Of a DNA stretch of 64,000 nucleotides, positions 8,024 to 41,177 are shown in pieces. The notes below the pieces were generated by a model. The model worked only from the letters and a program-made list of their open reading frames with translations. It was not told the DNA's origin and made no database searches. The stretch is from Azolla caroliniana (lineage: Eukaryota; Plantae; Polypodiophyta): assembly GCA_043228905.1 (NCBI GenBank), contig JBHGNT010000008.1, forward strand, positions 5,394,001 through 5,458,000. Reading direction: 5' to 3'. Numbering within the stretch: position 1 is the stretch's first letter; the number at the start of each line of letters is the position of its first letter. The position numbers were made by a program, and so were the translations under genes.

Positions 8024-8481
8024 TGTCAGAACCAAGAGAAAAGATAGAGTGGTAGACAAAAGATGTAAAGAGATAACGAGATAACGAGAAGAGAGAAATG
8101 AAGTGATAAGAGAAGAATGAATGTATTAGTAAGATAGAATGAAGATGGATACAAGAAAGGTGACGAAAGCTTAAGACTGGTGTTGATTTGAATTGGTTTG
8201 AGAAAAATTGTATGTCCATATTTATAGGTTTCTATAGAATAGTCTAGTGATTTCTATAATGTTCTAGAATGTTCTAGACCTAGAATATTCTAAGATGTTC
8301 TAGGATATTCTAGAATGTTCTAGAATGTTCCAGAACATTTACAATAGTGAACTATTACAAGAAGTAGCTTTTATTATTTTATATAATCATATGCTATCCT
8401 AATGGTTAGGTTCCTGATTATGTATTACAAGGTCTTGGGTTCAAGCCTAAGTGAAGCCATGATGCTTATGTATTCATGACA
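8024..8481 (-). repeat. 3' LTR of Tcn1-like element B
   Basis: TGTCATGAA...TTCTGACA on minus strand, preceded by PPT aaaggggag; ttctagaa repeats. Confidence 0.9.
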
Positions 8482-9652: not shown

Positions 9653-10811
9653 CGAGGATGGTTATCGGTGTAGGCAAAGAAAGGTGTAACCTTGGTAGAA
9701 GAGTGTAGCATGTTAGTGTATGCAAACAACAAGATGTAGAATATTGCTCCAATCATCTTGTTTATAACTGATGAAGCATTGAAGATATTGCTCGAGTGTT
9801 TGATTTGTGCGCTCTGTTTGTCCATCGGTTTCTGGATGATAAGCCGAAGAGAGTTTGTAGGAGATTTTTAGGCCTGCCCATAGGTGCTTCCAAAAGTGAG
9901 AGATAAATTGAGGACCACGATCACTAATTATATCGTCTGGAAGACCATGATGGCGAAATACTTCACGCATAACGATATATGCGGTTTCCTGACTATTGAT
10001 ACTCTTTACACATGGTAAAAAATGTGCCACCTTGGTAAACCGATCGACTACTGTTAAAATGGTATCAAATCCTTTTGAAGGTGGCAGATTCGTAATGAAA
10101 TCCATAGAAATAGACTGCCATGGCTTGGTTGGAGGCGGTAATGGTTGTAACAAGCCATAAGGATGATGCCTGGGTATTTTGGCTTGACAACAAGTGTCAC
10201 ATGTACAAACATAATCTTCGACAAATTTTTGCAAATGAGGCCACCAAAACGAACGCTTCACCAACTCCATGGTCTTGGCAATGGGTACAAAGCATGCGAG
10301 TGGAAACACTATTATAGCTAATTAGCTACTAAAATGACCACAGCTAATTAGCTATTTGTTTAGCTAGTTTTTTGTGGGAAAATCATAAGGATGGTTTACG
10401 AAATTTTATGTTTTATTAGTTAAATACATGTCATTTAATTTATGAGAATACTCAAATATTTGAACTTTGGTTTATGATGTAGTGGAACATGGGGAATCGT
10501 GCCATCATCTAAGGTCGACTTGAATGTCATCAAATTCTTGATAATCTTGAGTTCGAGTTCGAACTCCGAACAGATGGAGTACTCTGAGCATGAACGCAGA
10601 TGAAGCCCCCGTAGCAGCACAAAAACTCTGAGATCGACATTGCACCTTCAGATCTACAACACACGAGCAAGTTGATCCTCGTCCAGGTATGTAACAGTTA
10701 CATATTAAAAAAACTTTTTTTTTCCTTTCTGATAATTGTCTGTAACTTTGGTGCCTGTTCATCTTTCCCAAAAATCGAATAGGGCGAAGTCGTTGGAGTC
10801 CCAAACAAGGA

Positions 10812-11266
10812 TGTTACGGGCATGACCATATAATATCCCGTGGTAAGAATTTACCGTAGTATTCTATACACGTGGATAAGTGTGAGGGTTAAACGAGAGT
10901 GTAAAGAAGGGGAGGATTACTTTTAATCCTCGGGATTGAGACAACCCATTAGGTCAAGTGTGAACTTGCCTGGGGGCCTTGGGTATCGCTATAAATAAGA
11001 GGCCTAGCTACCCTCATTTGATCATCTTTTGACTACATCGAGACTCTGCTCGTGTGGTGGGTCAACTCTTGTAGCGAGCGCGCCAACACCAGGTACGACT
11101 CGACACCACGGCGGTGGTATGGGACGCCGATCGAGGCTCGAGTCCGTCTCGATCCCTTCGCTCGGGGGTGGTCGGGTGGATCGGCACCCTTCTTTCTCTT
11201 TCTCCTTTCTATCTTTCATTTCTTTATCCTTATCTTAAGCTTACTTTAGTACTTAGATCTATAATA
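10812..11266 (+). repeat. 5' LTR (455 bp, TG..TA)
   Basis: Direct repeat of 17339-17792; TATAAATA ~10988. Confidence 0.96.
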
Positions 11267-11268
11267 TT

Positions 11269-11278
11269 TGGTATCAGA
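11269..11278 (+). promoter_or_regulatory. Primer binding site, tRNA-iMet
   Basis: TGGTATCAGA two nt after the LTR. Confidence 0.9.
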
Positions 11279-11522
11279 TTTTTGTACTAATGTTTCTTTG
11301 TTTTTCATTTGTCTTTTGATTGATGCTGATCGATCGTTGTGCGGTTGGCCTTGATCCAAACAACGATCAACAAAGAACTTCGGTAACTCTTTCCATAATT
11401 TTTCTTTCTATTCTCTCTTCTCCCATCTAATCATGTGTTTAGTTTATATGTAATTTTTTTCATTAAGTCAATGATGTTGTAGTGGTCTTTAATTGATTAT
11501 CTAAAACGTTTACATATGTGCA

Positions 11523-11775
11523 CGAGGTCAATACCTCGTTTGACATATTAATAATATGTGATGAGTGTCGTATGCGTACGAGGTTAATACCTCAATTACG
11601 TATTACGTTCACGAACATATGTTACGTTTGCGTATGAGTTTAATACCTTGATTTGTTGTAAACGATATGCGGTTGGTCTCGTATGCGTAAGAGGTCAATA
11701 CCTCAATTGCGTATTACGATGATCTCTTATTTGTGGATGTTTCGTGTGTGTAGAGGTATATACCTCAATTACGTC
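11523..11775 (+). repeat. Five ~56-bp hairpin-forming repeats in the 5' leader
   Basis: GAGGT-N4-ACCTC cores at 11524, 11580, 11636 (degenerate), 11691, 11753. Confidence 0.75.
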
Positions 11776-12947
11776 TCTCGATCACATCATTTGTGGCTAT
11801 TTAATATAACGATATGTTAATATAGGCATATGTGGTCACGTATATACATATTTGATCGTATATATGTGATAAGTAAACATATGTGTATATTCGTTATTAC
11901 GTGATTATATCGAAAGTTGTCCTTGTCGAGAAAAGGATGTTGGTGGCCGTCCTCACATTTTTGTGAGAATGGCGTTGTCACCATCCCTTTTTCAACAATT
12001 TTTTATTGTTGACAACCCCGTTGATGACCTCGATTTCGTTACGTAAAGAAACGCCTATGGCCATAATGATGTTGAGTACGTAGGGCTTGACCCATTTCAA
12101 GTGAGGTCGCTCCAATGACACACGTATCCAACATCCCTCCCTCGTTACATGGATACGATGCCACCATGAGCTCGTTCTTACGAGAGGCATTCGTAATGAC
12201 GTGACCATGTGATGGGCCACGTGAGCCTACTATGAAACGAGGGCTCATTTGGCTTGACCATTAGGTTGCACTTTGGCGTATGCCATCGTAATTACGAGAC
12301 TTGAGGTTAGGTAACGTACCAACATAGTTTTGGTAAATGAGGGCGAAATAAGGACCCTTGACATATATGTTCTTTTAGAAAAAACATATATGATCTCGCA
12401 TATCTCTTATACGCATCAAACATTAAGAATTCAAAAAGAGCAACTTACTTGGTTGGCTCAAATGTTTAATTTATTTGTTCTCGAGGTCTCGAGTTCAAAT
12501 ATGATCAAGACCATACAACATCCTTGATACATATGACTATAACACATGTTTAGACTTAAGGTCTAAGTGCACCTCGGGGTCCTCGTAATAGGACTTAAAG
12601 AGCCGAAACCACATATGTGGGCACCGAAACATAGTTTATTGTTAACATTTTTTTCGTGTATAAACTATTCATGACGCGAACATACATGGTTGAGCCTCGG
12701 GGAGCCACCATGAAAAAATCGATATAGAGATCAGGGAAAGACATTTATTTGTCACCCCCATGGTTTTTAAAACAACTTTGTGTTACCATAGTAACCTGAT
12801 CTTGAACCTCATCTCATACGTCTAGAGGGGTATTGACGTGAGATAATGATATCGATTAATGCTCGCCCATGATATGTTTACATCACGACATGATGTTATG
12901 ACTATATCTCTGACCTTATCCTAATTCTTTTCCAGAAATAATCTTTA

Positions 12948-15900
12948 ATGGCTCAAATTAACGACCCGATGTCATCCGCTCAAGCGGAAGGAACTCAAGG
13001 GAATCCTCCTGGACAAATGTCCACTGAGATGTATTTGGCACAAATAACCCAATACCTTAGTTCCACCGCTCAACAGATGACCGAACTTCGGCAATCTCAG
13101 AGTGCTCTTGAGGCACGTGTCATTAGTCTACAACGTGAGACTAATAGACCTGATGATCGACAAGGTGAACCATCATTTGTCGTTAAGCCATTTACGGGAG
13201 ACAAAAAGGAAAGAACCGAAGAAGCAATCTGCACATGGCTGGGACGATGGGAGTCTCATTTTGAGCTCTATCCCACGCCAGATAGTACGAAGATTGCATA
13301 TGTCGGCCGAGAACTCGGGGGTAAGGCCGCCGCCTGGTGGCGTGGCCTCTGTACTATGGGGAAATTGCCCGATACCTGGACAGATTTTGTCACGGTTTTT
13401 AAGGGCCAATTTCTGCAACCTCCCTCTCGAACCGAGGCAGCACAAGCTTTAATGAACCTCTCTAGCAGGAAATTTTCCTCGCTAGAAGACTATGTTCACC
13501 ATGCTAGAACCCAAATCCAAAAATCGGGTCTAGTAGGGGACAATTGGTTGATAGCTTGTTTTGTCAATGGCATCCCCAATTCGGACTATCACTGGATAGT
13601 GCACGATAAGGATCCAAAATCCTTCGAAGAGGCCGTTGAAATAGTTCTTCGCTATCAACGCACTTCGAAGAAGGACCATAACAAACCCAACGAAGCGCCC
13701 GGGACTAAGCAGTCGCAATTTGTTGGGAAACGCAAGACACCCAACGAATTCCTGGATCGCGATTGTAAGCGACAACATCCTTTTTGTGTATTCTGCAAAA
13801 AGAAGGGTCATACAAAAGATCAATGTCGAAAGCTCCAACGGAAAGAGCACGACAACAAAGCTAAAGCTGCAGACCATAAAGGTCAGATTCCTAATGTCCT
13901 TGAGGTCTATACACATCATTTAAGTAATTGTCAATGTTCTTTCCCTCACTATGTATTGGGTCCCAATGATTTACTACGTGCAAACGGGTATATCAATGGA
14001 TCTCCCGTACAATTTTTATTTGATTCGGGAAGCTCACACAATTTTGTGAATGATCGTTTGGTTCAGATATGGGGAATCCAACCCACCGTAAGTGATCACA
14101 CCTACACGGTGCACTTGGCTGATGGAAGAGTACAATACATCAACGGGGCGATTCATTCATTAGGAATTTCTATTGATACTTATATAGAGGAAGTAGACTT
14201 CCATGTAATGAATCTTTGTACCACCGGTGTAATACTGGGTTATCCCTGGTTTTATAATAAAAACTCTTCTTTATTTATTGATTGGGTTCCTCATTCCATT
14301 TCTTTTGTACTGAACGATTGTACGCATTTTATTCAATGTGTAAAAAAACAATCCCTCTCGATTGTTTCCTCGTGTCCATCAATATCCGAGTTGTCTTGTT
14401 CTACGTTATTTTATTGTGTACTTGATCCGGACATTCACGTTTACAATATCGATAATGTCCCGATTCAATTAACATATTTTGAACAACAACAACTTGATGA
14501 AATCTTAAATGATTTTCATGATGTTTTTCCAAGTGAACTACCTGATGGGTTACATCCTAAACGTAATATAGACCATCGTATAGATATTGTACCTGGTGTT
14601 GCACCAATAAGTATACCTCCGTATCGCTTAAGTCGATCCGAAGAAGATGAGGTATTTAAGCAACTCAAGGACTATTTACGAATGGGTTATATATGTTATA
14701 GTAAATCTCCATGGGGTGCACCAGTTCTCTTGGTTAAAAAGAAAGAGGGCACATGGCGTATGTGTATTAATTACCGACGCTTGAATAAAGTGACGATCAA
14801 GAATTCGTATCCATTGCCCCGGGCTGACGATTTAATTGACCGTCTCCAGGGAGCTCGGTATTTTACGAAACTTGATCTCCGTACTGGCTACCATCAAATA
14901 TGAATAAGTGAGGACGATGTTCCTAAAACAGCATTTCGTACGTGCTATGGCCATTACGAGTTTTTGGTTATGCCTTTTGGTTTGACCAATGCTCCGGCTA
15001 CTTTTCAACAAGAAATGAATGACATTTTCCGAGAACAACTTGGAAAATTTGTTGTTATTTTCTTGGATGATATTTTAGTTTATAGCCGTACATTACAAGA
15101 ACATGCTAGACATGTCCGCTTTGTTTTACAAACATTGCGTGACAAACAGTTTTATGCGAAGATCTCAAAATGTGAGTTCTTCAAGAAATCAATTACTTAT
15201 CTAGGACATCTCATAACCGAACGAGGAGTTGAAATTGATCCTTCTCACATTGAGAAAATCAAGCTTTGGCCCACTCTTCGGAATATTCGAGAAGTTCGAT
15301 CATTCCTTGGTTTTGTGGGGTTTTTGCGAAAGTCTCTTCGTAATTACTCCCAATTGACGACGCCGTTTACTGATCTTTTAAAAGGTCAAACGCGTAAGTC
15401 TACAAAACCTATTGTGTGGAATGCTACACTAGACCTTGCCTTTAAGGAACTCAAGGACCTGGTTTTGCAAGGCTCCTTCACTTCTTTTACCTGATCCTTC
15501 AAAACCTTTTGAGGTTGAAACCGATGCAAGCGATTATGCTATAGGTGTTGTCTTGTATCAAGATGGTAAACCAATAGCATTCGAGAGTAAGAAACTTGAT
15601 TCTGCTCAATGTCGGTATACCGTTCCAGAAAAGGAATTATTTGCAGTTATACATGCGCTCAAAACATGGTGCCATTATCTTTATGGAAATCACTTTGTGG
15701 TAACTACGGACCACGAGTCCTTGAAATATTTTTGTGACCAACAAGACCTGAAAGGTCGTAAGGCACGATGGGCTGATCTCATCTAGGACTTTGATTTTTC
15801 CATACGATATCGTAAAGGTTCCATGAACACTGTCGCTGATGCACTAAGTCGCATCCGTGAAGTTAACATGCTTAGCTTCACTGCAATATCATCAGATCTT

Positions 15901-17352
15901 TATGATCACCTTCGAGGAAAGTATCCTGATGACAGTTATTTCGCAAAATACTGGGCAAGAGTTGAGTCTGGAACAGACACCACCACATCCTCGAAGGAAT
16001 ACTTCCACATTGCTAACGGTTTGCTCTACCGTAATGGGAAGGTTTGTGTTCCAGATTTACCCGAGGTCAAAAAGAGGATTCTTTTTTAATGCCATGATGC
16101 ACCCTCAGTAGGGCACCCTGGAATACATCGTACACTCGTTCTCATCTCCACTCAATTTTATTGGCCTAAGATGCGTCCTGACATACATAGCTATGTGACT
16201 AAATGTCACCAGTGTCAGGTTAACAAAGCCGAGCAACTTAAAGCCGCAGGACTTTTACATCCCTTGGACATTCCCAATAATAAGTGGGAAAGTATATCCA
16301 TGGATTTTATTGTTAGCCTTCCTCGCACCCAAAAAGGTCATGATGCCATCTGGGTTGTCGTTGATTGACTAACTAAAATGGCCAGATTTATTGCTACTAA
16401 AACCACGGTAACAGCTCCTGAATTGGCTTACCAATTCGTTGACGAATTGTTTCGTTTTTATGGGTTACCGATGGATATCGTGAGTGATCGAGATCCAAAG
16501 TTTACTAGTGAATTCTGGACACAAGTCTTTAAGAAGTTAGAAACTACGTTGAGCATGAGCTCCACGGATCATCCTCAATCCGATGGACAGACAGAACGAG
16601 TAAATCAAATTATTGAGGACATGCTTCGAGCATACGTTGGTGCAAAACCAACAAAATGGGAACGTTATCTCCCAATTTTGGAGTTTGCTTATAACAGCTC
16701 CAAGCATACGTCGACGGGATATAGTCCTTTTATGTTGATGTATGGTTTTCAGCCACGAGCCCCGATTGATGTTAATATACATCATGATGAGTTGCGAAGT
16801 ACGCAAAACTTTCTTCGGGATATGCAAGATATGTTGCATATTGCACGAGATAATATAAAAATAGCTCAAGATAGAGCACATTTTTATGCTGATCATCATA
16901 GGCACCCTCGTGTATTCAACCCTGGACAGAAGGTATTTTTACGTGTACCTCACAATTCTAAGACATTGTCTACGGGTAAGTGCGCTAAGTTAGCCCCACG
17001 GTTTTGTGGACCTTTTACAGTCCTCAAATGCATTGGGTCATCAACCTATCGTCTCGCTCTTCATGTGAGTCGTCTAAAAGAACTTCTAGGTTCTGGCGAC
17101 AATACAGTTACGACTGAAACTCTGGTTACTTCTAAAGAATTATCTTCTAAACCACATGTACCAGAAAGAATTCTCGATGTTAAAACAAAAAAATTACGTA
17201 CTAAAGAAATCCGAGAATTTAAAATAAAATGGATGGATAAATCAATAAAAGATGCCACATGGGAACGCGAAAATACTCTTAGAACTAACTTCCCTAACTT
17301 TCCATTGCAAGAGTGCAATGTTTTAAAGAGGGGGAGTATGTTACGGGCATGA
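12948..17352 (+). pseudogene. gag-pol: gag-pol polyprotein (Gag, CCHC, protease, RT, RNase H, integrase, chromodomain), disrupted
   Basis: [48 protein letters not shown]; stops at 14901, 15784, 16087, 16366 and frameshift ~15460. Confidence 0.95.
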
Positions 17353-17792
17353 CCATATAATATCCCGTGGTAAGAATTTACCGTAGTATTCTATACACGT
17401 GGATAAGTGTGAGGGTTAAACGAGAGTGTAAAGAAGGGGAGGATTACTTTTAATCCTCGGGATTGAGACAACCCATTAGGTCAAGTGTGAACTTGCCTGG
17501 GGGCCTTGGGTATCGCTATAAATAAGAGGCCTAGCTACCCTCATTTGATCATCTTTTGACTACATTGAGACTCTGCTCGTGTGGTGGGTCAACTCTTGTA
17601 GCGAGCGCGCCAGCACCAGGTACGACTCGACGCCACGACGGTGGTATGGGACGCCGATCGAGGCTCGAGTCCGTCTCGATCCCTTCGCTCGGGGGTGGTC
17701 GGGTGGATCGGCACCCTTCTTTCTCTTTCTCCTTTCTATCTTTCATTCTTTATCCTTATCTTAAGCTTACTTTAGTACTTAGATCTATAATA
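17339..17792 (+). repeat. 3' LTR (454 bp, TG..TA)
   Basis: Direct repeat of 10812-11266. Confidence 0.96.
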
Positions 17793-19509
17793 AAGGATGT
17801 CTCGAAGATCGGGGTGTTGCAGTAGGTGTGTTTCTGATTGACAGAATTTCTTAGTAAGGTTGGTTTCTGCTTTTAGTGATGATTAGGGTTTGTGTTTCCC
17901 TTAAGTGGTTTAGGGTCTCTGATTACAAATTTCAGATTGCAAGTTTCTGGTTACAAATTTCTGATTACTGCTGCAATCTGTTGTAATTTTGCACCAATTC
18001 TCATGACAAATTCTGATTTTTTAAGTGGTTGATTTCTGATACATGTTGAAAAGGACATATTACAAATTTCAGATTACTGTCTCAAAGAGTTGTAATATTA
18101 CACCAAATTCACATTAAAAATTCTGTTTTTGCACCAATTCTGATTACTGATTTTCTATTTCAGGTGGCTTGTTCCTCCCTATCCTAGAGTGTTGAAGTTC
18201 GCAAAATTTTGCAAGACAAAGGAGGACTTTCACAACATATATGGTCTGTCGCTCGAGGGTATTGACCCTACTGTTCTAACTGATAGATTGATTAGTGATG
18301 TAGACTGGATGTCAGTATATAACGTGCCTAGAGTGAAAGGCAAGGTCAAGCTCAAGCATGTACGACCGGACTTGTACGACGACTGCATGAGACTGCACCA
18401 GAAAGTACATCAAGAGATCCCGGTCAACAACGAGTTGTCCATTTCATTTGCCACAACTTTTGCATACGAGCATTGCAAAACAATGAAGGAATCTCGTGAC
18501 CCTGAAATGTACAGGGTAGCTTGGGCAATTTATGGTGAGGCATCGGTAGAAAGATGTCAGAAGATGGGGAGCTTACAACAAAAAATGGCAAGATTTTGGA
18601 GCATGGCAGTTGATGATGCAACTGCCGACTCCCAACAAACCCGCAAGTATACGCCACACCGACACACAATGAAAGCCAATGTCCATGATACATGTGAGGC
18701 ATTGATTAGTTATATGCTAAAAAATGTCCATGAAGCCTGTGAGACATTGGAGTTTTTTAAGACTGATTTAGAGAAAACAACATTGGCTGCTACGATGGAG
18801 AGCAAAGTCATTTTGGCAGTTACAACAAAGAAATAAGATTCAGGTACCTATTGTTTTGCTGGTATGTAATATGTTATAAATAACTTGTACATAAAAATGT
18901 GCTATTGAGGCATTATCTGGAATAGGTTGCTCAACATGAACTTGAAATTGAGGGGTCATTGGATCCCCAACGGAAAATTCAACTACAGACAGAGATCCAG
19001 GTTCTTTCAATGAACCTGGACCTTCTAGTTGTAAATATTGTCGTTGATTACAATTTGGAAAAGCTACAAGTAAGTTAATGATTCTTGTTTCTTGTTGTCG
19101 TATCTTTCTCATTAAGGAATAATTAATCGGTAAATTTCTCGACTGCGTTGCAGGAACAATACTCCCGTCAACAACAGGTAGTTAGCTGCCTTAAGAAGCA
19201 ACTACATTTTGCGGAGGGGATGGTAAGGAGCAGACAAGAATTGGACCAGAACATTCTTGCTCCCTTACCAAATGAAGGAGAACTAGGAAACGATATATTG
19301 ACTGTTCAAGTACGTTGCATCGCTTTTGGATTACGTGTAGAGGACAAATCTGCTACTTTGTTGGTTCACCTATAACCATGCCAGCACACATACCATATCG
19401 TTTGTTTTCAATATGCATGTCGCATTGCTGCATTTTGTTTGGGGTATTGTAGTACATCTCTTCCAGATGAGTGGAGAAAACACATAGGTAAAATTGATGC
19501 TTGTGACCA

Positions 19510-21412
19510 TAGTGTAGCTAATTAGTTCCATCTTTGCTAATTAGGAAAGTTGTATAAAGTGTGGAAACTATTTAGCTATTATGGTTGTAGTGTAGTAGCT
19601 AATTACCTAACATGTAATTAATTAGCTAAGTGGTAGCTAATTAGCTACTACCATACTTTAGCTGAGTAGCTAATTAGCTACCACTTAGCTAATTAGCTAT
19701 TGCCACACTTTAACTCAGTAGCTAAAAAGCTAAGTAGAAGCTAATTAGCTATTACCATAGTTTAGTACAGTAGCTAATTCGCTAAGTGGTAGCTAATTAC
19801 CTACTACCATAGTTTAGTATAGTAGCTAATTATCTAAGTGGTAGCTAATTAACTACTACTATAGTTTAGTACAATAGCTAATTAGCTAAGTGGTAGCTAA
19901 TTAGCTACTACCATAGTTTAGTATAGTAGCTAATTAGCTAAGTGGTAGCTAATTAGCTACTACTATAGTTTAGTGCAGTAGCTAATTAGCTACTACAATA
20001 GTTTAATACAATAGCTAATTAGCTAAATGGTAGCTAATTAGCTACTACCATAGTTTTGTATAGTAGCTAATTAGCTAAGTGGTAGATAATTAGCTACTAC
20101 CATAATTTTGTACAGTAGCTAATTAGCTACCACTTAGCTAATTAGCTACCTGTTAGCTAATTAGCTACTAGCATACTTTAGCAGAGTAGCTAATTATGTA
20201 AGTGGTAGCTATTTAGCTACTACCATAGTTTAGTACAGTAGCTAATTAGCTAAGTGGTAGCTAATTAGCTACTACCATACGTTAGCTGAGTAGCTAATTA
20301 GCTACTACCATACGTTAGCTGAGTAGCTAATTAGCTACCACTTAGCTAACTAGGTACTACCATAGTTTAGTACAAGGGCTAATCAACTAAGTGGGAGCTA
20401 ATTAGCTACTACCATACTTTAGTTATAGAGGCTAATTAGCTAAATCGTAGCTAATTAGCTACTACCACAGTTTTGTAGAGTAGCTAATTAGCTAAGTGGT
20501 AGATAATTAGCCACTACAATAGTTTAGTACCGTAGCTAATTCGCTACTAGTTAGCTAATTAGCTACCACTTAGCTAATTAGCTACTACCATAGTTTAGTG
20601 CAGTAGCTAATTAGTTGAGTGGTAGCTAACTAGCTACTACCATAGTTTAGTACATTAGCTAATTAGCTGAGTGGTAGCTAACTAGCTACTACCATAGTTT
20701 AGTACAATAGCTAATTAGTTGAGTGGTAGCTAATTAGCTACTACCATAGTTTACTACAATAGCTAATTAGCTACTACCATAGTTTACTACAATAGCTAAT
20801 TAACTAAATATGGTAGCTAATTAGCTACTACCATAGTTTACTACAATAGCTAATTAGCTAAATGGTAGCTAATTAGCTACTACCATAGTTTAGTACACTA
20901 GCTAATTAGCTAAGTGATAGCTAATTAGTGACTACCATACTTTAGTTGAGTAGCTAATTAGCAAAGTGGTAGCTAATTAGCTACTACCATAGTTTAGTAC
21001 AATAGCAAATTAGCTAAGTGGTAGCTAATTAGCTACTATCATAGTTTAGTACACTAGCTAATTAGCTAAGTAATAGCTAATTAGCTACTACCATACTTTA
21101 GTTGAGTAGCTAATTAGGAAAGTGGTAGCTAATTAGCTACTACCATAGTTTAGTACAGTAGAAAATTAGCTAAGTGGTAGCTAATTAGCTACTACCATAG
21201 TTTAGTACAGTAGGGAATTAGCCAAGTGGTAGCTAATTAGCTACTACCATACTTTAGTTAGAGTGGTTAACTAGCTAGTACCATACTTTAGTTGAGTAGC
21301 TAATAAGCTAGTACTATACCAAAGAGAAGTAGCTAATTAGCTCAGTGGTAGCTAATTAGCTACTGTCGTAGTCTTGAAGAATAGCTAGTTAACTAAGATG
21401 TCGCTAATTAGT
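19510..21412. repeat. Minisatellite, ~52-bp and ~33-bp units built on palindrome TAGCTAATTAGCTA
   Basis: Unit tagctaattagctaagtggtagctaattagctactaccatagtttagtacag repeated with variants. Confidence 0.95.
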
Positions 21413-23556
21413 AACCATGTTGTTGTAGAATCTTGTGGATTAAAGAGGGCGCATGACCTGTTTGGTGTTGATGACACTGCAACCGATGAGGAGATAGTTG
21501 CCAACATGGCTGAAAGTAAGAGTCCTGCTATCACATCTCCTTCAGATTAACTCCACCCTATTCTTTTGGAAGATGGTAATGAATTAGGCAACGATGTGAA
21601 AAGCCTTGAAATATTGGAAACAACATGTAAATCTGAGGTTCACAACAATAGTGTTTTTGAACACTTGATGCAACATTTCTTCGAATCCCAAAACCTTGAT
21701 TCCACCCCACTGAGCCCAACTACTAATAATGTCCAAACAGATCCCATTGTACTGGAAAAGCTAGTGCAAGATGCGGCTGACTTGCAAGCCGCTGCTGAGG
21801 TGATGGAAAGGTTGTCGGAGGAGGACACACTTGCGCAATGGGTCAAAGAAGCAAGGCCAAATCGGCAACTGGCTAGAAAAAGGCTGAAGAAGGGCCACGA
21901 TCGAGGACAAGACCCGTTACTCGGTCAAGGGGCTCTTGAATTGGAGCAAAATACTTATTAGTGGGATATGATTGTTAGCGATTTTCCTAGGGTTTTATGA
22001 AGTTGTACTATGATCTATTTGGACAAGTAAAACCTCAGATTGGTTGTTGCTTGATCCACATTATGTAATGGAACTCTATGATGTTTCTCCAAGATAATTA
22101 TGTTCATGTTTCTATGATGGAAAATATTTCATGTTCATTATGTTGTTTTGTGAGATTGTTAGTTACTTTGTGAGTGTGAATATGTTGGTGTTTTCTAATG
22201 TTGCAGAGTCTAAAGGGTTTGAATCTATTGCTCCTAAGGCCGATGGCAATGTGGAAACTGTTGATGTTGCTGCGTGTTTAGAGGGCCACATCTTGAAAGT
22301 AGATGTAGCAACTGACACAAATGATCTGGTCATGCAAGTTGATAAAGCATGTTGCACAGATGATCTGATTTTGCAGGTAGATGCAACATGTGATACCAAT
22401 GGGCTGATATCGACCAAATCAGTATCTACATGCACTGAGCCAATGACTAAGTCAACAACACAAGAGCACTAGAATGTGAAGCCAGGCCCAACCCAGTCGA
22501 CCAGGGGTTTGAAGAGGAAAAGGACACCAATTGTGCCGACAGAACCTGAGTTGATTGACCTAGATCATGTGCTACCAGTAATTGGTGTAACAGATGCTCA
22601 GTTACACGAATGAAAACCTAAACCATTAGAGGTCGAAAGAAGAGCCTTGATCTTGGAGCTTGATAAAGTCCTAATGAGTGTGTGATATATGACACCAAGG
22701 AGGGATGCAAATCAATTTCTGGAGTGGGTTGTACAATATTTCGATTTGTTTATTTGGAGCGAAAAACCACGTACGGATGTGTGGAAGTGTGTAGAAAGAT
22801 TCTTCCTGAAGTGGCGATAACATTTCAAGGGTCAGTGGACACGAGAGAATTGTGAGCAGAATGATGTTGCAAGATTCAAAAGACTTTCTGATTTTTGGGA
22901 CACTTGGCCAGATTATAATGCCGACAATACGTTGATTCTGGATACGGAACATTTCCGACATTACTTCAACATTCGCAGATGCTGTCTCATTCTACCCGAT
23001 GAAATGCCTGAACACTATTTGGTGAAAACATTGAGTTGCCAACTAGCTACATGGTTGTGGACTCCATACCGTGCTCGGTATGCAGATCATATATGTAGAC
23101 AAGTTCCACTGACCAGCAAGAGCTTAGTTGTTTATAGACGATTTCAAGACATTGGCATTGGGATGTTATAAATATGTAATTTGCTACCACTTAAGCAATG
23201 AAGAATTAAATTGCTTGTTTTGAGTAAACTATCTACAGTGTAATTTTAAGAGTATGTTTAGGATTGCTAATTTCATGATAGTGTTTTTTCTTAAAATTAT
23301 GCAAACTATTTTAACTTGTACATGGTTCACTTGAGTAAATCTGTATTTCAGAAAGAAGAACCCTAAACGATATTATTAAACTGTATATTAGAAACAAGAC
23401 TGTATATAAAAATGACACACGATTTTGTTGAGAAAGAAGCACAAAAAGTAGACTGTATATGAAAAAAAAAACTCCCAAACAGGTCCATTAAACTATTTAT
23501 TTGCAATACATGTGCTTTGTTTGTTTTACAAGAAAATTGGTAATTGCTACTTGTAG

Positions 23557-26500
23557 CTACAAATACCATGGCATACTGTTGTAAATACTTTCATACACAT
23601 TAGCACTAACTGTGTATAAACCTGAATAGCTATTGTATGTCGACATTGGGACATTGATGCACCTGACCAAATGAGAGTACATGTACGCCACTGGTTTGTC
23701 TTCTAATAGCCTATACACATAATCGTAATCATCTAGTCTTGCATAAAAAATACCTTCGATGTGGAATGTCCCGGTAGATACAACATTTCCCCAAGCATCT
23801 AATATATTCTGCGTTGCACACTGTTTACTAACCGTGCACTTCAATATATAGAAATCAACATCCTCTGAATTGCCTTCTTCTGCATTTACAGCAACATTAT
23901 CCCCAACATTTAAGACATCACTCAGAGTATCTCCACGTCCTTGATATGCGAAGTCAACATTCTTTTTTGTTTCCCCATCAACTACTTCCTTATTGTTCAA
24001 TGTATGATACTCCCAATTCTGAATATATGCTTTGTTTAAACAATACCTCCAATTTCCCTGCACACAATGGAAGCAAAAACAAGTTAATTCTCTAACTGCA
24101 ATACAATGACCATCCAACCTAGAATAACTGCGAACAACATGGAGAGATCGCAATTCGGGAATTCCTTGGCACTCCCAGGTCTTCTCCCTATTTACTTCAT
24201 CTATCTTCACTTCCCAAAATTCATGTTTGATATCTCGGACCTGCGAGGAATAAACACCAGTTGCACTCGTTGACATATTAGCTCTAAAAAATTCAACTAC
24301 ATGTGCTTCACAATTCATCTGCACACCATTTGCCTTTAGTTGTTCATGGGTAAGTGCCCGCTTTATAACACCACCTGCACCATCATGTTCACCTTTACCA
24401 TGACCAAACCCAAAAACATTCCATCTCATCTCCAAACCTGTTATAGCAGGATACCTCCCCACAAAATAAAATGGATGTCTAGCCTTGAATTGTGACGCAG
24501 CTCCATCAGTCCAGACCCCATGTTGAGTAAGCTCCAAACGTTTAGCTAATAATCATTGCCAATGTAAGTTAAAACAATGTTGGATGAACAAGGTGTCATG
24601 CTTCTTATCATTAGAAATAAAAAAATGAATTACTTTTTTAACATCACCTAAAACTCGAAAATATGTTATGTGCACAAAAATGGTTACCTGCGCTAAAAAC
24701 CAATGCATAAATTGAATTTCATTCTACTGCTTGAAAGTATAATTCTCTGCGAAATCTACTACTGAGACTACTACATCATTTGGAAAATCAGATATGCAAG
24801 TCTTAAACTGATGGGCTTTCCATGAATAAATGAAGTTGTGTTTAATGAACTTTCTTAGAGATACTACAAATAGAGATGCCAAATCCATTGGTTTAAGCGA
24901 CTTCCTAACTAGATCCTTTCTTTTACACACCTTTCCTTCGAAATTGGTGTCAACTGACTCAAATAACTTGACAGAGATTAGTATTTCACTACTCAATTCA
25001 TTTGGACACCACCTAAATCTACTAGGGCCACAATCTTGACATAAACCCATGACACATTTATGATTGTGGAAGATGGCCTCAGTTTCTGTTGGACACAATA
25101 TTGAATCTAAAAGACAACTCATGGAAGAGATAACATGCTCGAATGATTTACAATGCTCATGTTGGCTCGATCGACAAATTGGACACACACAAATGCAAAC
25201 TACATTTGTTAGGGAGGAGCTATGGTGACATAGTAGATTAACAGAGTCCTTGAGAAAACCCATTTGTACATGGTAAATGCAACAACATGTGTATCGATCC
25301 TTCAAGCGTCTCACAAAGTGTGGGTTAAGAGACTCGAATATTCGTAGTTGAACTTTGATATTTGGACGCATTTGCTTGAACCTAATAAATAAATCAACCT
25401 GCGTAATAAAATGGACATACTGATTAGCTCTATGGCTAAGTGGTAGGTAATTAGCTACTACCATAGTTTAGTGCAGTAGCTAATTAGCTATGTGGTAGCT
25501 AATTAGCTACTATCAAACTTTAGTTGTGTATCTAATTAGCTAAGTGGTAGCTAATTAGCTACTACCATACTTTAGTTGAGTAGCTAATTAGCTAAGTGGT
25601 AGCTAATTAGCTACTACCATACTTTAGTTGAGTAGCTAATTAGCTAAGTGGTAGCTAATTAGCTACTACCATACTTTAATTGAGTAGCTAATTAGCTAAG
25701 TGGTAGCTAATTAGCTACTACCATAGTTTAATACATTAGCTAAATGGTAGCTAAATAGTTTAGTACAATAGCTAATTAGCTAAGTGGTAGCTAATTAGCT
25801 ACTAGCATAGTTTAATACAATAGCTAATTAGCTATTGTTATAGGCAGCTAATTAGGTATTATGGTAGCTAAATAGTTATGAATGGTAGCTAATTAGTTAT
25901 TCTGGTAGCTAAATAGCTATGTTCGATATACTTAGGGAGCTAATTAGCTATTTTGGTAGCTAGTTTGTTATGGGCATATTCTGAGGTAGGTAATTAGCTA
26001 TTCAGGTATGGTCATATTTAAAGGTAGCTAATAAGCTAACTAACTAAGCTCAAAAGTCAAAAGAAATGTTGAGATAAATGTAAATACTTGAGGGACATCA
26101 AGAAGATGAATGGGATGCTCCTCGTATTGACTCCTTCCAACACGTTTCCTGCATAAATCCTTCTTATTGGGTGAAACCCTACTCTCATTAGTCCAAAATA
26201 TTTTGATTATATCCTTGATTTCTGATGTTATGGGTGACATTGGCTTACATCTTGTTGTTAGCTTTAACAGACTAGTTCCTTCACTCGAGGAAACTATTCG
26301 GTTCAATGTATTGTACACATTTTTTCTACTAACACCAATTACCTTAAATAACACACTAATGTTAATATCGTCAACATCACTATTAAGTAACGTCATTAGA
26401 CTAGAACTTTTTAAGACAAGATCATCTTCTGACCTGCTCATGGATACGAAACTATTACGGAGATTATTTACTAGTACAGATGTTATGTTTGCATTAAGAC

Positions 26501-26844
26501 CATCACAATCAACTAATTCCTTTATCGATGGATCATTTAATATTCCATAAAGTACTACCTTCTAGTCTTCATTGCTGATGTGCTTGGTTTGAACATTGAA
26601 ATATTCTACAACCTTTCTCTCTATGATAGTAGTCTCATTACGTCCATTCTCAGTGATATTTAGACCTATATCCCAACCAATACTATCTTTACCTTTAGTG
26701 AGTGTGGTTTTCGTATCCTTCAACAATTGACGATGTTTTTTTTTCTGCCCAATACTTTCGTATCGCTTGTTGTGTCCTAATAGCTTCATCCCTATCCTGA
26801 TGATCATTGAGGGGTAATTCTAAACAGCCTCCTTCCCCTTCCAT
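23557..26844 (-). pseudogene. Sola2-like DDD transposase with one intron (25399-26087)
   Basis: VVDFAENY, WTDGAASQFK, FGFGHGKGEHDGAGGVIKR, Cys-rich CCCIYH and CMGLCQDC-type motifs; in-frame splice LLDVPQ|VDLFIRFK; internal stops and frameshifts. Confidence 0.8.
25420..26045. repeat. Second TAGCTAATTAGCTA minisatellite block, inside the transposase intron
   Basis: Same 52-bp unit as 19510-21412. Confidence 0.92.
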
Positions 26845-26999
26845 TTGGCTTGATGGGTTTAAACCCTAATTTTCCTGAAAAAAAGACACGTATTAAAGAT
26901 GCCTATGGGCAACAACTATACACAAAAATATTCCACAATACACAAGATTATATAGAACAATACACAAGATAATCAATAGACAGAATAGTTATTCAAATC

Positions 27000-27930
27000 C
27001 AAGACCGAACAATGGCGGTAATCTAGGGCCGCATAGTGGCGGCAACTGAGTGTAGAATGGCGGTAGTGGAGGAGTGAACTCCGTTTGATCGAACATTTTT
27101 GACAATCCAGGACCGAACAATGGTGGCAACTGAGTGTAGAATGATGGCAATGGAGGAGTGAATTCCGTCAGATCGAACAGTGGCAGATGGTGCTTGGAAC
27201 GCACAGTGACGACAATTGAGAGTAGAATGGCAGCAGTGGAGAAGGAGTGAACTCCTTCGGATCAAAAAGTGGCAGCAATACACCATCGAATAGTAGCGGA
27301 AACTAAGTGTAGAATGATGGCATTGGATGAGCAAATTCCGTCAAATCAAACAGTGGCAGATGATGCTTAGAATGCACAGTGACGACAATTGAGAGTACAA
27401 TGGCGACAGTGGAGAAGGAGTGAACTCCCTCCGATCGAAAAGTGGCAGCAATACACGACCGAACAGTAGCGGCAACTAAGTGTAGAATGATGGCAATGGA
27501 TGATTGAACTCCGTCAAATCGAAAAGTGGCAACAATCCAGGACCGGTCACCAAATAGTAGCGGCAACTGAGTGTAGAATGATGGCAATGTAGGAGTGAAC
27601 TCCGTCAAATCGAACAGTGGTAGATGATGGTTGGAACACATAGTGATGGCAACTGAGAGTAGAATGGCGGCAGTGGAGAAGGAGTTAACTCCATCGAATC
27701 GAAAAGTGGCAGTAAAATACGACCTTCACAGTAGCGGCAACTGAGTGTACAGTGGCGGCAATGGAGGAGTGAACTTGGCAGATGATGCTTGGACTGAACA
27801 GTGGTGACAACTGAGTGTAGAATGGCGGCAATGGAGGAGTGAACTCCGTCGGATCGAACAGTGGCAGATGATACTTGGACCATTCAATGTCGGTAATTGA
27901 GTGTAGAATGGCGACAATGGAGGAGTGGAC
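27000..27930. repeat. Degenerate tandem repeat array upstream of the transposase
   Basis: Recurrent caactgagtgtagaatggcggcaatggaggagtgaactccgtc module; minus-strand translation repeats TEFTPPLPxFYTQLP. Confidence 0.85.
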
Positions 27931-28251
27931 TCAATAGGGTTTAGCAACAATGGTAGTAATCTAAGCCAGAATACTCAACCAAAGATGGCCCACGTGATGT
28001 GGCAAAGGATCATGCATTATAATGGACCTAGGAATTTGGTATATAATTTATGGTGCACATATCAATTTATGTTGCATGTGTATGTTGCACATTTATGGTG
28101 CTTATTTATATAATTAAAACTCTCTACTATTTTCAATGCTAGCTTTTTGCATAGCTAATTTATTAATGGTAGCTTTTTGCAAAAATGACTATTTATCAAT
28201 GGTAACTTTTTGCATAGCTAATTGTTTCCACTCACATGCTTTCACCCCAAT

Positions 28252-31499: not shown

Positions 31500-31855
31500 G
31501 TTTGTTTCGAATTGGTTTGAGAAGAATTGTATGTCCATATTTATAGGCTCCTATAAAATAGCCTAGTGATTTCTATAATGTTCTATAATGTTCTAGACCT
31601 AGAATATTCTAAGATGTTCTAGGATATTCTAGAATGTTCTAGAATGTTCCAGAACATTTACAATAATCAATCTATTACAAGAAGTAGCTTTTATTATTTT
31701 ATATAATCATATGCTATCCTAATGGTTAGGTTCTTGATTATGTATTACAAGGTCTTGGGTTCAAGCCCAAGTGAAACCATGATGCTTCTGTATTCATGAC
31801 AGTTGACATCGACTAGGTCTACCGAATTACCCCATCCCGGAGTGAAGGGGGAGTT

Positions 31856-32639: not shown

Positions 32640-35150
32640 AGAACTATCACTTCCCAAATCTACGCCATCATTTTCAGACCCATCCTCATCCTCATCATCA
32701 CTAGCAACCAACGCATTGTCTTCATCCAATTGCAATCCAACATCACCGTGATTATGAGACTTGCTCCTTGTTCATCTTTGTGTCGTGTTGGGATCCACAT
32801 TTGGGATCTTCTCTTTTATTATCTTGATTGTGGTCTATCTTAGATATCTTGTTTTTGTCATGGAGAAGTCATACACTAGTATGTCTGCATTATCAAATGT
32901 GAGAGGAGACGTGCTTGGTAGATTCTTTCTTCTCTGCTTTCTGCTTGTGCATCCGACATCCTTAGCCATCTCTAAATAGTACTTCCTAGAAAATGCATTT
33001 GGGGAAGAGATACGATACCAATGAACCACAATGGACTGAACTTGATTGCTTAGTTCATCCTTAATAATTTCAAGAGTTTTAGCAATCCAAAAGGGATGGC
33101 CCAACTCATCACCCCCAGCTTGTAGCTCGTGCAAATTGCCTTGCCATCTTGCCTTTGCAGTACGTGATCTTCTTGGTCCCATGTAAATATCTCTCTGTCG
33201 TGGACGAACTAAATTATTGAGTTCAGTATGGTCTAGTGATTGATAATGAGTTGTGGATAGCCTTGATGGTATACCAATTGGCACACCAATATTCCATGTG
33301 AATGGATTTTGGAGTGGCCAATATCTAGTAAAGTGGTCATCTAAAATTATGTGTTGATGGTTGAAGAAGTTACCCCACCATTCAACATTCTGATCACCTG
33401 TGTACTTCTTGGTGCGCTCAACATTTTTCTTTTTCTCTTCAAGCCATCACATCCAATATTTTTTTTTCTCATCAATCAAACTAGCGGGAGCCAATCTTTT
33501 ATGGTCGTCATATGGAATTTGTTATGCACAATGGATGTCTGCATCTGGAAAACGCAATAAGAGCCCACAACCCTCTTGTGGCTCCCATTGTGAACTAGAT
33601 GAGTATTGTTTGGCATACAATAGTGTTTGGTCATGGCTCATAGAACTTCTTTTTATGAGGAAGACATGGTTAAAACTTATATATTAAGCGGTACCCTACT
33701 TTGAGTCCCATCACCATTCACGTAGAAGTGTTTAAAATCATAAACTTCATCCAAATGTTGTACATCTGTCTTCGGGGTATAAGCTTCAATGATCAACTTT
33801 GATAGTGTAGGAAGCGTGAAAGCATCACATCTTGCCAATTTCTTTGAGAACCTATTAAACATTTGATCTATATGATCATGGGTATGACCAACTAGTAAGA
33901 AGTTGACCTTAATCTTTTTAAATATGCCCCCTCTACTAGCATGCTTAAATAACCGAACACAGTTGAGTTTTTGTTTTCTTTGGCCGTGTTGTCAATTTGC
34001 ACGTATAGTACTGGCGGGATGACTGTAAGGTTAGGGTCGTTGTGGATATTAGGATAACTTAGGAAGACTAGAGGCCTTATTGTCTGACAATACGATAAAC
34101 AACCTACTAAATGCATTTGTACAAGGCATTCATCTCCAATATCCTTCGACAACCTTTGAAAGTGTGGCAAACAAGTCTTCTTCTGATCCATTCCATCTAT
34201 AATCAAGCACATGTACCTTTCTAGTGATTGAAATGCTTTTTGTCGATGGTGCGTAGCTTTGGACTTTCTCGATGTTCTTTTTATAAATTCTTACAGTTCT
34301 TTATTTCTTCATCAATTCTCCCACTCTTTGCCATGCTTTCTAAACTTGCACATACAGAGCAAACACCCATTCGGACCTTACGCGGTATAACCACGTTGTT
34401 AAACTGAAACCTCCATAATCAATTGAAATGTCGATATTGTATGTAAGGTACACATTCTAATAACATGTTATCCTTATACGCTTGGTATATGTCACGATGA
34501 GTGAAGTTACCTAACAAATGTAATATTCTAGAAGTAGGCATAATATTACATTGCTTTGAGAAATATAACTCCATCCACCTAACAACATGGCACCCTATTC
34601 AACCCTTACATCCAGATGCATTATTGTCGAAAGGTACCCATGAACCCTTTACTAGTTGTAGTTGAATTCTCTAGAGCCTCATGTTACCAATGCTATAAGC
34701 AATTTTGAAAGAAACTCGACAACACTTAGTACTTAGCGGAAGGTAATATTCAACATGCATTGAACTTGGTCCTCTTGTATGTTCCTTTACAAGCTACATA
34801 TATGAAATCAGAAAAGTATCTTGTTCGTCACCATTAAGTGAAAAATACTTTTGTTGCAATCCCCTCAAGTTTGCCTTTCCAAATTTAGGAAGCTAAAGAT
34901 TCCCACAACATGACTTGTTTGTATCAAATGCAATTTGAAGATCCGAACACAAAAAGTTAAATCTTTTGACACTAACTTGCCTAGGAATTCTTCTAAATTT
35001 GATAGGCTGAATTACGCAAGCCTGGTCACTAGATGTATCCACACTTTCACTGTTTGCAACATGTTTTCTCTTTTCTAAACCACATGAGTTTGAAGGCTTG
35101 GTCGAAAAAGTTGAGTTTGATCTATGCATAACATCATAGTTTTGTTACGA
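32640..35150 (-). pseudogene. Sola1-like DDD transposase relic
   Basis: IIDGMDQKKT, YVQIDNTAKENKN, LLVGHTHDHIDQMFNRFS, CxxC motif; many stops; termini not resolved. Confidence 0.7.
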
Positions 35151-35483: not shown

Positions 35484-35995
35484 CGGGCATACGCGCGTCT
35501 ACATGGCCGCGTGGACGTTTTCAGAAGTACGCGCGCATGGACGTCTTCGGATGTACGCGCGTGTGCAAGTTTCAGACGGACGTGTATGTGCGGATGAGCG
35601 TGCGGACGCGTGTGTGTGCACGCGCGCATGCGTGGACATATGCGTGGCGTACGCGCGTCTACATGGCCACGTGGACGTTTTCGGAAGTACGCGCACATGG
35701 ACGTCTTCGGATGTACGCGCGTGTGCAAGTTTCGGATGGACGTGTATGTGCGGACGAGCGTGTGGACGTGTGTGTGTGCACGCGTGCATGCGTGGACATA
35801 TGCGTGGACGTTTCGGACGGACGCGTATGTGCGGCGCAGACGCGTGTGTGCACATGCGCGCATGCGTGGATGCGTACACTACGGCGTGGTCGGGACGTGC
35901 GCATGCGTGGATGCGTACACTACTACGTGGTTGAGACTTTTGCGCGCTGACGCGTCTACGGTTTGGTTGCGACGCACGTGTGGATTGCGCACGGG
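35484..35995. repeat. CG-rich alternating purine/pyrimidine repeat with 160-bp duplication
   Basis: Copies start at 35490 and 35650; runs such as gtgtgtgtgcacgcgcgcatgcgtg. Confidence 0.85.
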
Positions 35996-36674: not shown

Positions 36675-37153
36675 TGTTGGATCATTTAGTGATCAAGACA
36701 GAAAAGAAGGGGGAAAGAGACTTACCTTTGCATAGTTCAAAAGCTTCTACTTCATTACACGTAGAGCTCAACTTGCTCTCGTTAGTTTTTTGTTCTTACT
36801 ACTCTCTGCACTACTCTCTCTATTCTCACTTCTACTTACTTTTTACTTACTACACTTACTTTTTACCTAAGCTATGAGTGTCTTATATATGCAGCTAATT
36901 AGCTGTCTGTAGCTAAATAGTTGTCAATAGCTAAATAGATGTGCATAGCTAAATAGTTGTTTCACCTTTATGTCCACTAGTAGCTAATTAGCTAATATCT
37001 ACTATAGCTTATTTCTCAATAAGCATCACATACCTTTGTTGAGCTTGCTTCTCAACACTCCCCCTCAAGCTCAACTTATCCTTTCTTTGGATCATCTTTA
37101 ATCTTCTTTTCTTCATGCTTTTTAGCTACCATGTCGATGGTTATAACTCCCAT
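36675..37153 (-). mobile_element. Copia 3' end: PPT and 383-bp LTR (36675-37057)
   Basis: Minus strand gagggggag|TGTTGAGAAGCAAGCTCAACA..TATATAAG..CCAACA; start resembles LTRs at 44446 and 54371. Confidence 0.7.
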
Positions 37154-37581
37154 TGTCAGAACCAAGGATAAAAGATAGAGTGATGGAAGAAGGATATTAG
37201 AGAACACGAGCAGAAAGGAACGAAATACTAAGAGAAGAATGGATGTATAATATAGAGAAAGAAAGAGAATGGATACAAGATATGTAATGAGAGCTAAAGA
37301 CTGGTGTTGATTCGAATTGATTTGAGAATACATGTATGCCCTTATTTATAGGTTCCTATAGAATAGCTTAGAGATTTCTAGAATGTTCTAGAATGTTCTA
37401 GACATAGAATGCTCTAGGATATTCTAGAACATTCTAGAATAATCTAGAGGTTTTACAATAATCAATGTAATACAAGAAGTAGCTTTTATTGTTTCATATA
37501 ACAATAAGCTATCTTAATGGTTGAGGTTTTCAAGTATGGATTACAAGGTTCGAGGTTCAAGTCCGGGTGACGCCATAATGG

Positions 37582-40500: not shown

Positions 40501-41151
40501 GGCCGATGCTTTGGAAGAACACTAGCTTTGACTTTGTCAAAAACATCAGCATAGTCTTGATATTTTTTGGGAATTTGGATGCCTGAATTCCCTTGAGTGA
40601 CACTAGAAGGTGTCACTGATACTGCAAATAAGAAAAGGTCCTCCTTGCCTCCCACATGGCACAATTGTTGAAATGTGATGGCGGAAATTTGATGAGAAGG
40701 ATATGGTGCATCGGTAGAACTATATACTTTAGGAGGATAATCCTGAGTTCGATCCTTGACAATGATATTTTTTGCTAAAGGGCACCTAATTTCTCGCTTC
40801 CTCCAATCGATTCTAGGGTTATGTAGCTCGAACCATGGCAAACCGAGGACAATTGGATGCTCAGGACTACGGATTATGTTAAAGGAAACTACACATCCTA
40901 AATCACCCAAGAGTATGTGTATTGGCTCAAACTCTTCAAATATCTTCCCGGAAGCTATGGGGCGTCCATCAATCACTACTATGGGCAAAATTTCTATCCA
41001 TGAAACAAGAATTGGCTCCAGTATCTAAGAGGGCTTGGACTTGAAGTTGACAACTGGGTGTCCTGACTTGTACTAGGGCTGAGAAGACTCTACTAACATG
41101 CTTGGAAGAAATGGAACCCACACTAGGTTGTACATATCTAGGGTTGTCCAA
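37582..41151 (-). pseudogene. pol: Tcn1-like C pol (PR-RT-RH-INT-chromodomain)
   Basis: ORF pieces 40969-41151, 40410-40988, 40165-40413, 38974-40098, 38686-38898, 37582-38676. Confidence 0.93.
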
Positions 41152-41177
41152 CCAAATGGCTCCTATTTTGGCCGGAC

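Follow-up and report, generated by a model that had tools for sequence, protein, structure and literature searches.

Is a gene that lies beside a transposase a working part of the transposon, or was it carried along by chance, and what would it do if it belongs there? This question is raised by a stretch of 64,000 nucleotides from Azolla caroliniana (GCA_043228905.1, contig JBHGNT010000008.1, positions 5,394,001 to 5,458,000; hereafter the window). An earlier note on its sequence had described a giant Sola2-like DNA transposon in which a minus-strand transposase gene is faced by a spliced plus-strand gene, here called gene B, with RING-H2-like and NIF/FCP1/SCP phosphatase-like parts. The motifs that it quoted all lie where it had placed them, i.e. 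DFAENY, DGAASQFK and HGKGEHDGAGG at 24756, 24507 and 24402 of the minus strand, the RING words at 19316-19450 and the NIF words at 22638-22914. The window copy of the element is a decayed pseudogene. Sequence comparison with its relatives indicates that gene B has long accompanied the transposase and been kept by selection, and that it is not a one-off capture. Its core consists of a domain of its own (domain A), a predicted coiled coil and a RING-like finger, the NIF domain being an optional addition in one sub-lineage. The element belongs to a known superfamily and carries an accessory protein family of which no description was found.

Gene B is kept with the transposase

Eighty metagenome loci were chosen by their transposase alone. 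An iterated domain A profile recognised 11 of them, in every case on the opposite strand downstream of the transposase, never upstream and never on the same strand. In the tree of transposases, which took in plant-associated sequences only, the window's clade has a sister clade where domain A faces the transposase in five of the ten distinct loci with at least 9 kb of downstream flank, and where L011, L012 and L063/L065 are recognised by a RING profile for which database proteins alone were used. The domain A versions of the two clades are homologous (hhalign probability 95.9, E value 6e-9), and gene order and orientation are kept across transposases that are only about 40% identical. Pairwise identities of domain A and of the transposase correlate over nine elements (rho 0.71, permutation p 0.0006), a correlation that kinship alone could give; with one close pair left out, they range from 12 to 51% for domain A versus 39 to 65% for the transposase. 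The two-gene arrangement is family-wide: the NIF of L004 and L006 and the domain A of the 11 loci face the transposase, and gene models of Adiantum join the domains of gene B.

Gene B had been credited with a RING and a NIF domain. Both are present, but the NIF is not part of the core: it was found in two of the 80 loci (L004 and L006) and in the window, all three within one clade of eight (support 100/99). In L004 and L006 it faces the transposase and lies 0.25-0.45 kb from its end, the transposases being 45-49% identical. L001, L007 and L008, in the same clade, have short flanks. In the spacers of the sister clade, no NIF was found with a purpose-built NIF profile and among 40 open reading frames (ORFs).

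Between loci L014 and L022, the ratio of non-synonymous to synonymous substitution rates is lowest for the transposase (0.10) and reaches 0.30 in domain A and 0.36 in the coiled coil; values obtained with L005 were discarded because of a probable frame error. The family is very abundant, with 4541, 4593 and 1009 read contigs from three DNA runs placed on 21400-25430 and covering all 30 bins of both genes, contig depth in these runs not being equivalent to copy number. In the NIF exon, where synonymous sites make up 20%, the majorities of four runs gave synonymous to non-synonymous changes of 9:8, 12:7, 13:11 and 16:7 (among the 40 of 43 rows listed), an excess of synonymous ones. The stops of the window's NIF exon are missing from the majority of the other copies, two of three in one run and all three in three runs. 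Gene B is under purifying selection. No contig spanning both genes was seen among those listed. In a run presumed to be RNA, two contigs matched the transposase while gene B had none, counts that have no bearing on expression.

The transposase is of Sola2 type

The transposase has two resolved exons on the minus strand, with three stops overall in the window copy. Homologues numbered 47 among 3820 candidates, one of them stop-free at 86% identity, and those from named plants belong to Cryptomeria, Taxus and Adiantum. D289, D330 and the DFAENY block are invariant in 31 aligned proteins. By eye, DFAENY, SDGAASQFK, HGKGEHDGAGA and the upstream Cys/His blocks match the Sola2 alignment given as Additional file 10 of PMC3627910. 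The assignment to Sola2 made in the earlier note is supported by this agreement of motifs. No relatives of the transposase were found in viral contigs. A remote homologue, P0047 (E value 2e-11), carries a chromodomain (Pfam Chromo, E value 6e-17).

Structure and domains of gene B

That the second, convergent gene is spliced is borne out by introns with GT-AG ends and agreeing phases, allowing one frame break in the exon at 18164-18843; less certain are the donor of the fourth exon and the exons at the 5' end. The gap to the transposase gene is only about 0.4 kb. The exons listed earlier included those for RING and NIF but missed the domain A exon, the small coiled-coil exon and the tandem arrays (Table 1). 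A minus-strand ORF at 18840-19181, considered as an inverted insert, was rejected, being the antisense of a gene B exon.

Using HMMER, 138 homologues of domain A were retrieved among 1.84 billion representatives. When longer homologues of domain A and of the NIF exon were sought by word-based methods, none came up, which, in view of the HMMER result, is a matter of sensitivity. Domain A itself matches no Pfam family, including those related to transposable elements, in the window or in the 78 of the 138 homologues that were scanned. Two of these 78, P0105 and P0158, carry a NIF above the Pfam cut-off and four a sub-threshold RING; P0158 and P0105 each join RING and NIF in one predicted protein, as expected from the earlier note. 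Together with the matching splice phases, this makes it likely that domain A, RING and NIF are read from one transcript, and only likely because the Adiantum proteins are predicted gene models, some of them chimeric. Names exist for 22 of the 28 domain A homologues looked up, every one an Adiantum hypothetical protein, which makes a fern the probable host. Several of the Adiantum models are chimeric, domain A being combined there with domains unrelated to it. In P0077, P0169, P0083, P0157, P0165, P0181 and P0184, domain A is joined to gag or to unrelated host domains, probably through chimeric modelling; P0077 and P0181 are named Adiantum models.

Domain A is predicted to be a compact fold (AlphaFold model, mean predicted local distance difference test, pLDDT, of 89), and the helices of gene B are predicted to form an antiparallel coiled coil. 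In the model of P0149, domain A is followed by long helices at 192-326 and then by the RING at pLDDT about 70. Fold searches with domain A gave no hit at E 0.001 or better with Foldseek against PDB and viral structures and a best Z of 2.6 in VIA, blanks that are no proof of a new fold; a 448-residue model matched only generic coiled coils. Atlas scores of 0.83-0.86 with DUF1985 and PMD clusters, without a Pfam match, are weak leads. The top Atlas matches of 18165-18704 (0.95-0.96) are unnamed eukaryotic clusters of low recognition, whose few labelled members are Basidiomycota.

The RING-H2-like motif stands when judged with a profile built from database homologues alone, which matches the window at E 6e-9, but Pfam zf-RING_2 stays below its cut-off there (E 0.059). 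The ligands follow a C3H2C3 pattern, C-x2-C ... C-x-H-x2-H-x2-C ... C-x4-C, in the intact P0149, P0177, P0148, P0124 and L011, and a RING-like core is present in nine of the 138 domain A homologues. The RING of L079, of a different C3HC4 type, was left out of the profile seed. A ubiquitin-ligase output of the gene B RING is possible. RING-like ORFs were also seen elsewhere, in a third clade directly downstream of the transposase on the same strand (L054:3658-4917, plus strand) and, in L069/L071/L073, about 6.5 kb upstream of it on the minus strand. They may be other arrangements of partner genes or the ends of neighbouring elements.

For the last domain, the family assignment holds: the window matches Pfam NIF (PF03031) with 32.5 bits against a cut-off of 21.8 (E 8e-8), and L004, L006, P0105 and P0158 also exceed the cut-off. 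The CTD (carboxy-terminal domain) phosphatase activity that came with this assignment is not supported. FCP/SCP enzymes have the catalytic motif DxDxT/V (PMC2994645). All six relatives compared (P0105, P0124, P0158, P0089, L004 and L006) have DLNG in its place, and the window family has ELDKV, with no majority change at 22632-22670 in four runs (among the 40 of 43 rows listed). The window NIF is also without the cap region or insert, while the first Asp and a later DD/DN-type motif are kept in the relatives. Since DxDxT is absent, an active CTD phosphatase is unlikely, and we infer that the domain is a pseudophosphatase; residual activity is possible in the DLNG forms, which we take to be like uncharacterised plant and fungal FCP1-like proteins. 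A sequence search of PDB with the window NIF gave no match, and the closest solved relative by sequence is a weak match to UBLCP1 (E 0.7). The domain is thus like FCP1, SCP and UBLCP1 in its FCP-homology region and in the FIWS and YNxxNTLIxD motifs, which align with UBLCP1, and unlike them in motif I.

The introns of both genes hold tandem arrays. The palindrome TAGCTAATTAGCTA occurs in 50 exact copies in the window, 36 in the large intron of gene B, 12 in the transposase intron, one at the left end and one outside the element. Tandem arrays are present in nine of 13 transposase introns (six of six in the window's clade) and in none of the 13 main exons; they differ between families and are unrelated in sequence. 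The genes of the element are depleted in CpG (observed/expected 0.51-0.58), which is consistent with methylation by the host.

Possible roles of gene B

It is known that Sola2 elements can carry a second gene, e.g. Sola2-Fanzor1 of amoebozoa (PMC3627910). The present element resembles the Sola2 of that source in its DDD transposase with DFAENY, SDGxxxQ(Y/F)K, HGKxxxDGxGG and upstream Cys/His motifs, in its short imperfect terminal inverted repeats (TIRs), in a target-site duplication (TSD) compatible with 4 bp and in the possibility of a second gene. Unlike Sola2-Fanzor1, its second gene encodes domain A, coiled coil, RING and in some cases NIF, is convergent and spliced with tandem arrays in its introns, and occurs in two plant-associated clades. 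In agreement with the earlier note, full-text literature searches turned up no account of such a second gene in Sola; Repbase entries or the original Sola paper may note one. PMC13547354 contains no whole-word mention of Sola, RING or phosphatase. The Sola literature considered also includes PMC9033089, bioRxiv 2021.09.26.461848 and a cypress preprint.

Outside Sola, the VANDAL/VANC elements (Mutator-like, Arabidopsis) likewise have an extra gene beside the transposase and family-specific non-coding tandem repeats, the VANC targets being tandem repeats that vary between related transposable elements (PMC5735166). They differ by their transposase superfamily and by the RING and phosphatase-like modules found here, and no sequence relation was detected in Pfam scans of domain A, which leave room for remote homology. 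The TnpA protein of En/Spm (CACTA), also a second product, is believed to bind a short motif that occurs in repeats and is present near the termini as well (PMC2613891). TnpA, reported as derived from transposase (bioRxiv 10.64898/2026.08.24.746577), comes from the same transcription unit as the transposase, whereas gene B is separate and convergent and its motif copies are mostly intronic. In MAIN, MAIL1 and MAIL3 with PP7/PP7L, a transposon-associated plant mobile domain is fused to, or works together with, a phosphatase domain in the control of transcription and silencing (PMC7156037). These are domesticated host genes with a PPP-type phosphatase, whereas gene B is still transposon-encoded and has an HAD/NIF fold, the link being one of analogy.

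An anti-silencing role of gene B is a reasonable inference. We favour, tentatively and at a little under an even chance, that its product is a trans-acting helper of the TnpA/VANC kind that keeps the copies of its own family active. Domain A would recognise the family's repeated motif in the introns and near the ends, the coiled coil would oligomerise the protein along the array, and the RING would recruit an E2 and ubiquitylate silencing proteins or chromatin in the vicinity. One fern-type sub-lineage would also have acquired, as a docking or decoy module, a captured and catalytically degenerate FCP1/UBLCP1-like HAD domain. A bolder form of this proposal, unlikely when taken as a whole, is that land-plant Sola2 elements encode their own sequence-programmed ubiquitin ligase. 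Its DNA-binding domain, of a new fold, would read the family-specific intronic arrays while the RING would mark silencing or chromatin proteins; in ferns, the dead CTD-phosphatase domain would act as a docking decoy for phosphorylated RNA polymerase II (Pol II) or the proteasome.

Several observations weigh against a helper of this kind. Four of the 13 introns have no array (two of these being the same intron), and of the eight loci for which a motif is defined, only the window and L002 have the motif of the intron on the gene B side as well, most of the others having short flanks. Domain A went undetected by the iterated profile in five of the ten distinct long loci, and its net charge of only about +2 (median of 63) does not speak for DNA binding. 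In L002 and L003, within the window's own clade, the convergent ORF ends in an acidic-basic tail without NIF. The last zinc-ligand pair of the RING, C-x4-C, is atypically spaced, and none of the family's RINGs exceeds the Pfam cut-off (best E 6e-4, 20.4 bits versus 27.3). By analogy, the transposase itself could be the array binder, transposases being reported to act as sequence-specific activators (bioRxiv 10.64898/2026.08.24.746577).

Gene B might instead be a structural cofactor of transposition, without any anti-silencing role, that binds the transposase or the ends and serves synapsis, nuclear import or target choice. Precedents for such a protein are MURB of MuDR and the second ORF of Harbinger. 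The strict linkage and co-inheritance of gene B with the transposase and the motif copies adjoining the TIRs would suit a cofactor, and excision of Spm needs TnpA (PMC2613891). We regard it as a serious candidate that is nevertheless unlikely: the rate of evolution of domain A is far above that of the transposase and the C-terminal module can be missing, so that conflict with the host fits better than a core mechanical part, and the Sola descriptions in the accessible part of PMC10741241 mention the transposase only. The conserved RING ligands of both clades could also serve a self-limiting regulator, in which the RING ubiquitylates the element's own transposase or the protein represses the element through the arrays. 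TnpA acts both positively and negatively (PMC2613891), and convergent genes about 0.4 kb apart could interfere with each other. Self-limitation is improbable for a family of the abundance seen in the three DNA runs, and nothing ties the RING to the transposase.

A lower probability still is given to a protein combining an active RING ligase with an active Pol II CTD phosphatase that modulates transcription. The Pfam scores of the NIF in the window and its four relatives would support it, and the Asp and DD/DN-type motif that are kept would allow some HAD chemistry, but the replacement of DxDxT/V by DLNG or ELDK, the cap region deleted in the window and the weakness of the UBLCP1 match argue against it. 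Passive cargo, i.e. captured host fragments without function as in Pack-type elements, is largely refuted and deserves very little credence. The window copy is broken, the NIF must ultimately derive from a host gene, and several Adiantum domain A models are chimeric; against this stand the purifying selection, the absence of the stops from most other copies and the order and orientation kept across highly divergent transposases.

If the favoured helper role is correct, the second gene is a candidate for explaining how Sola2, abundant in large-genome seed-free plants, persists in heavily methylated genomes. To our knowledge, the transposon-encoded proteins recognised so far as countering silencing are few and come exclusively from Mutator and CACTA elements of flowering plants. 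Should the ubiquitin-ligase reading be true, gene B would represent a third independent anti-silencing system after TnpA and VANC, with ubiquitin as its output. This work also supplies an unclassified domain that is predicted to fold well, and explains Adiantum 'hypothetical proteins' with domain A as probable transposon genes. Sola2 is reported as the top DNA transposon superfamily in cypress (cypress preprint).

Ends, insertion site and neighbouring elements

The element ends in 26-bp imperfect TIRs, identical at 22 of 26 positions without gaps (Table 1). Both termini begin with GGG, as had been observed, whichever TSD register is used, and Sola2 termini are of the form GRG. The 4-bp TSD CAAT described earlier is obtained only if the TIR alignment takes a 1-nt gap; without the gap, the duplication reads AAT and the element ends on the right at 28248. 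The TSD length is compatible with 4 bp or 3 bp, and a paralogous empty site fits both. The two flanks rejoin as one unbroken Ty3 integrase sequence, to which a paralogue without interruption corresponds at 38222-39624, and the insertion is therefore genuine. A second copy with both ends was not found, TIR searches in long relatives giving no convincing ends. Four matches to the TIR pattern in viral contigs, all phage, were set aside as chance. Rfam gave no match.

The 18-kb size for which the element had been called giant is not its own. A Ty3/Gypsy element with long terminal repeats (LTRs) identical at 453 of 459 positions, an AAGGA duplication and gag-pol with few stops is nested in the 5' part of gene B, and the DNA transposon itself is therefore about 11 kb long. 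Most Sola elements are of 2-9 kb, some exceeding 15 kb (PMC10741241).

Table 1. Coordinates of the Sola2-type element and its parts in the window
Feature	Position	Strand	Basis
Left TSD	10279..10282 (CAAT) or 10280-10282 (AAT)		Empty-site paralogue at 38850-38853
Left TIR with GGG at its start; copies of the TAGCTAATTAGCTA palindrome motif follow subterminally	10283..10308	+	TIR alignment
Probable 5' exon(s) of gene B, GT donor 10687, decayed and cut by the nested element; candidate only	10400..10807	+	Sequence, inference
Nested younger Ty3/Gypsy LTR retrotransposon, separate from the DNA transposon	10808..17793	+	LTRs, AAGGA on both sides, gag-pol ORFs
Gene B exon: domain A (about 145 residues) and start of coiled coil; reading frame broken close to the 3' end in window copy	18164..18843	+	138 homologues; pLDDT 89; close relatives
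Gene B small coiled-coil exon	18926..19069	+	Aligns to P0105 and P0168; AG/GT ends in phase
Gene B RING-H2-like exon; window copy lacks the second Cys and contains one stop	19154..19487	+	RING profile, alignment
Gene B intron with 52-nt tandem array, 36 exact TAGCTAATTAGCTA copies	19488..21428	+	Sequence
Gene B acidic low-complexity exon, 3' end uncertain	21429..21923	+	Indel at 21891 in many other copies
Gene B last exon, with three stops in window copy; NIF/FCP1-like HAD domain at about 22638-23050, its motif I being ELDKV	22207..23171	+	PF03031, E 8e-8; relatives matched by profile with probability 99.2
Main exon of the Sola2-type DDD transposase; window copy has two stops	23557..25398	-	Motifs; stop-free relative P0001/L001, 86% identical
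Transposase intron with 52-nt tandem array, 12 exact palindrome copies	25399..26087	-	Sequence
Transposase upstream exon (start uncertain)	26088..26780	-	tblastn matches in over 40 loci, each upstream of the transposase there; N-terminal block of Sola2 alignment
173/264-nt tandem array upstream of the transposase gene, unrelated to the 52-nt arrays	26979..27964		Sequence
Right TIR	28223..28248 (end 28247 with 4-bp TSD, 28248 with 3-bp TSD)	-	TIR alignment
Right TSD	28248..28251 (CAAT) or 28249-28251 (AAT)		Flank comparison

The host of the insertion is a minus-strand Ty3/Gypsy element at about 8130-31800, whose LTR-like repeats (8183-8481 and 31502-31801) are 95% identical and which has a paralogue at about 37150-41600. 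Another DNA transposon, also decayed and with a transposase of the DUF7869 type (PF25273, E 2e-23), is located at 32835-34290 (minus strand), 35486-35807 and 36890-36990. Its ends were not found. It shows DGMDQ, DN and GHTHD motifs and a 160-nt tandem array, and near it are copies of the AGCTAATT motif, which is also present in the Sola2 element.

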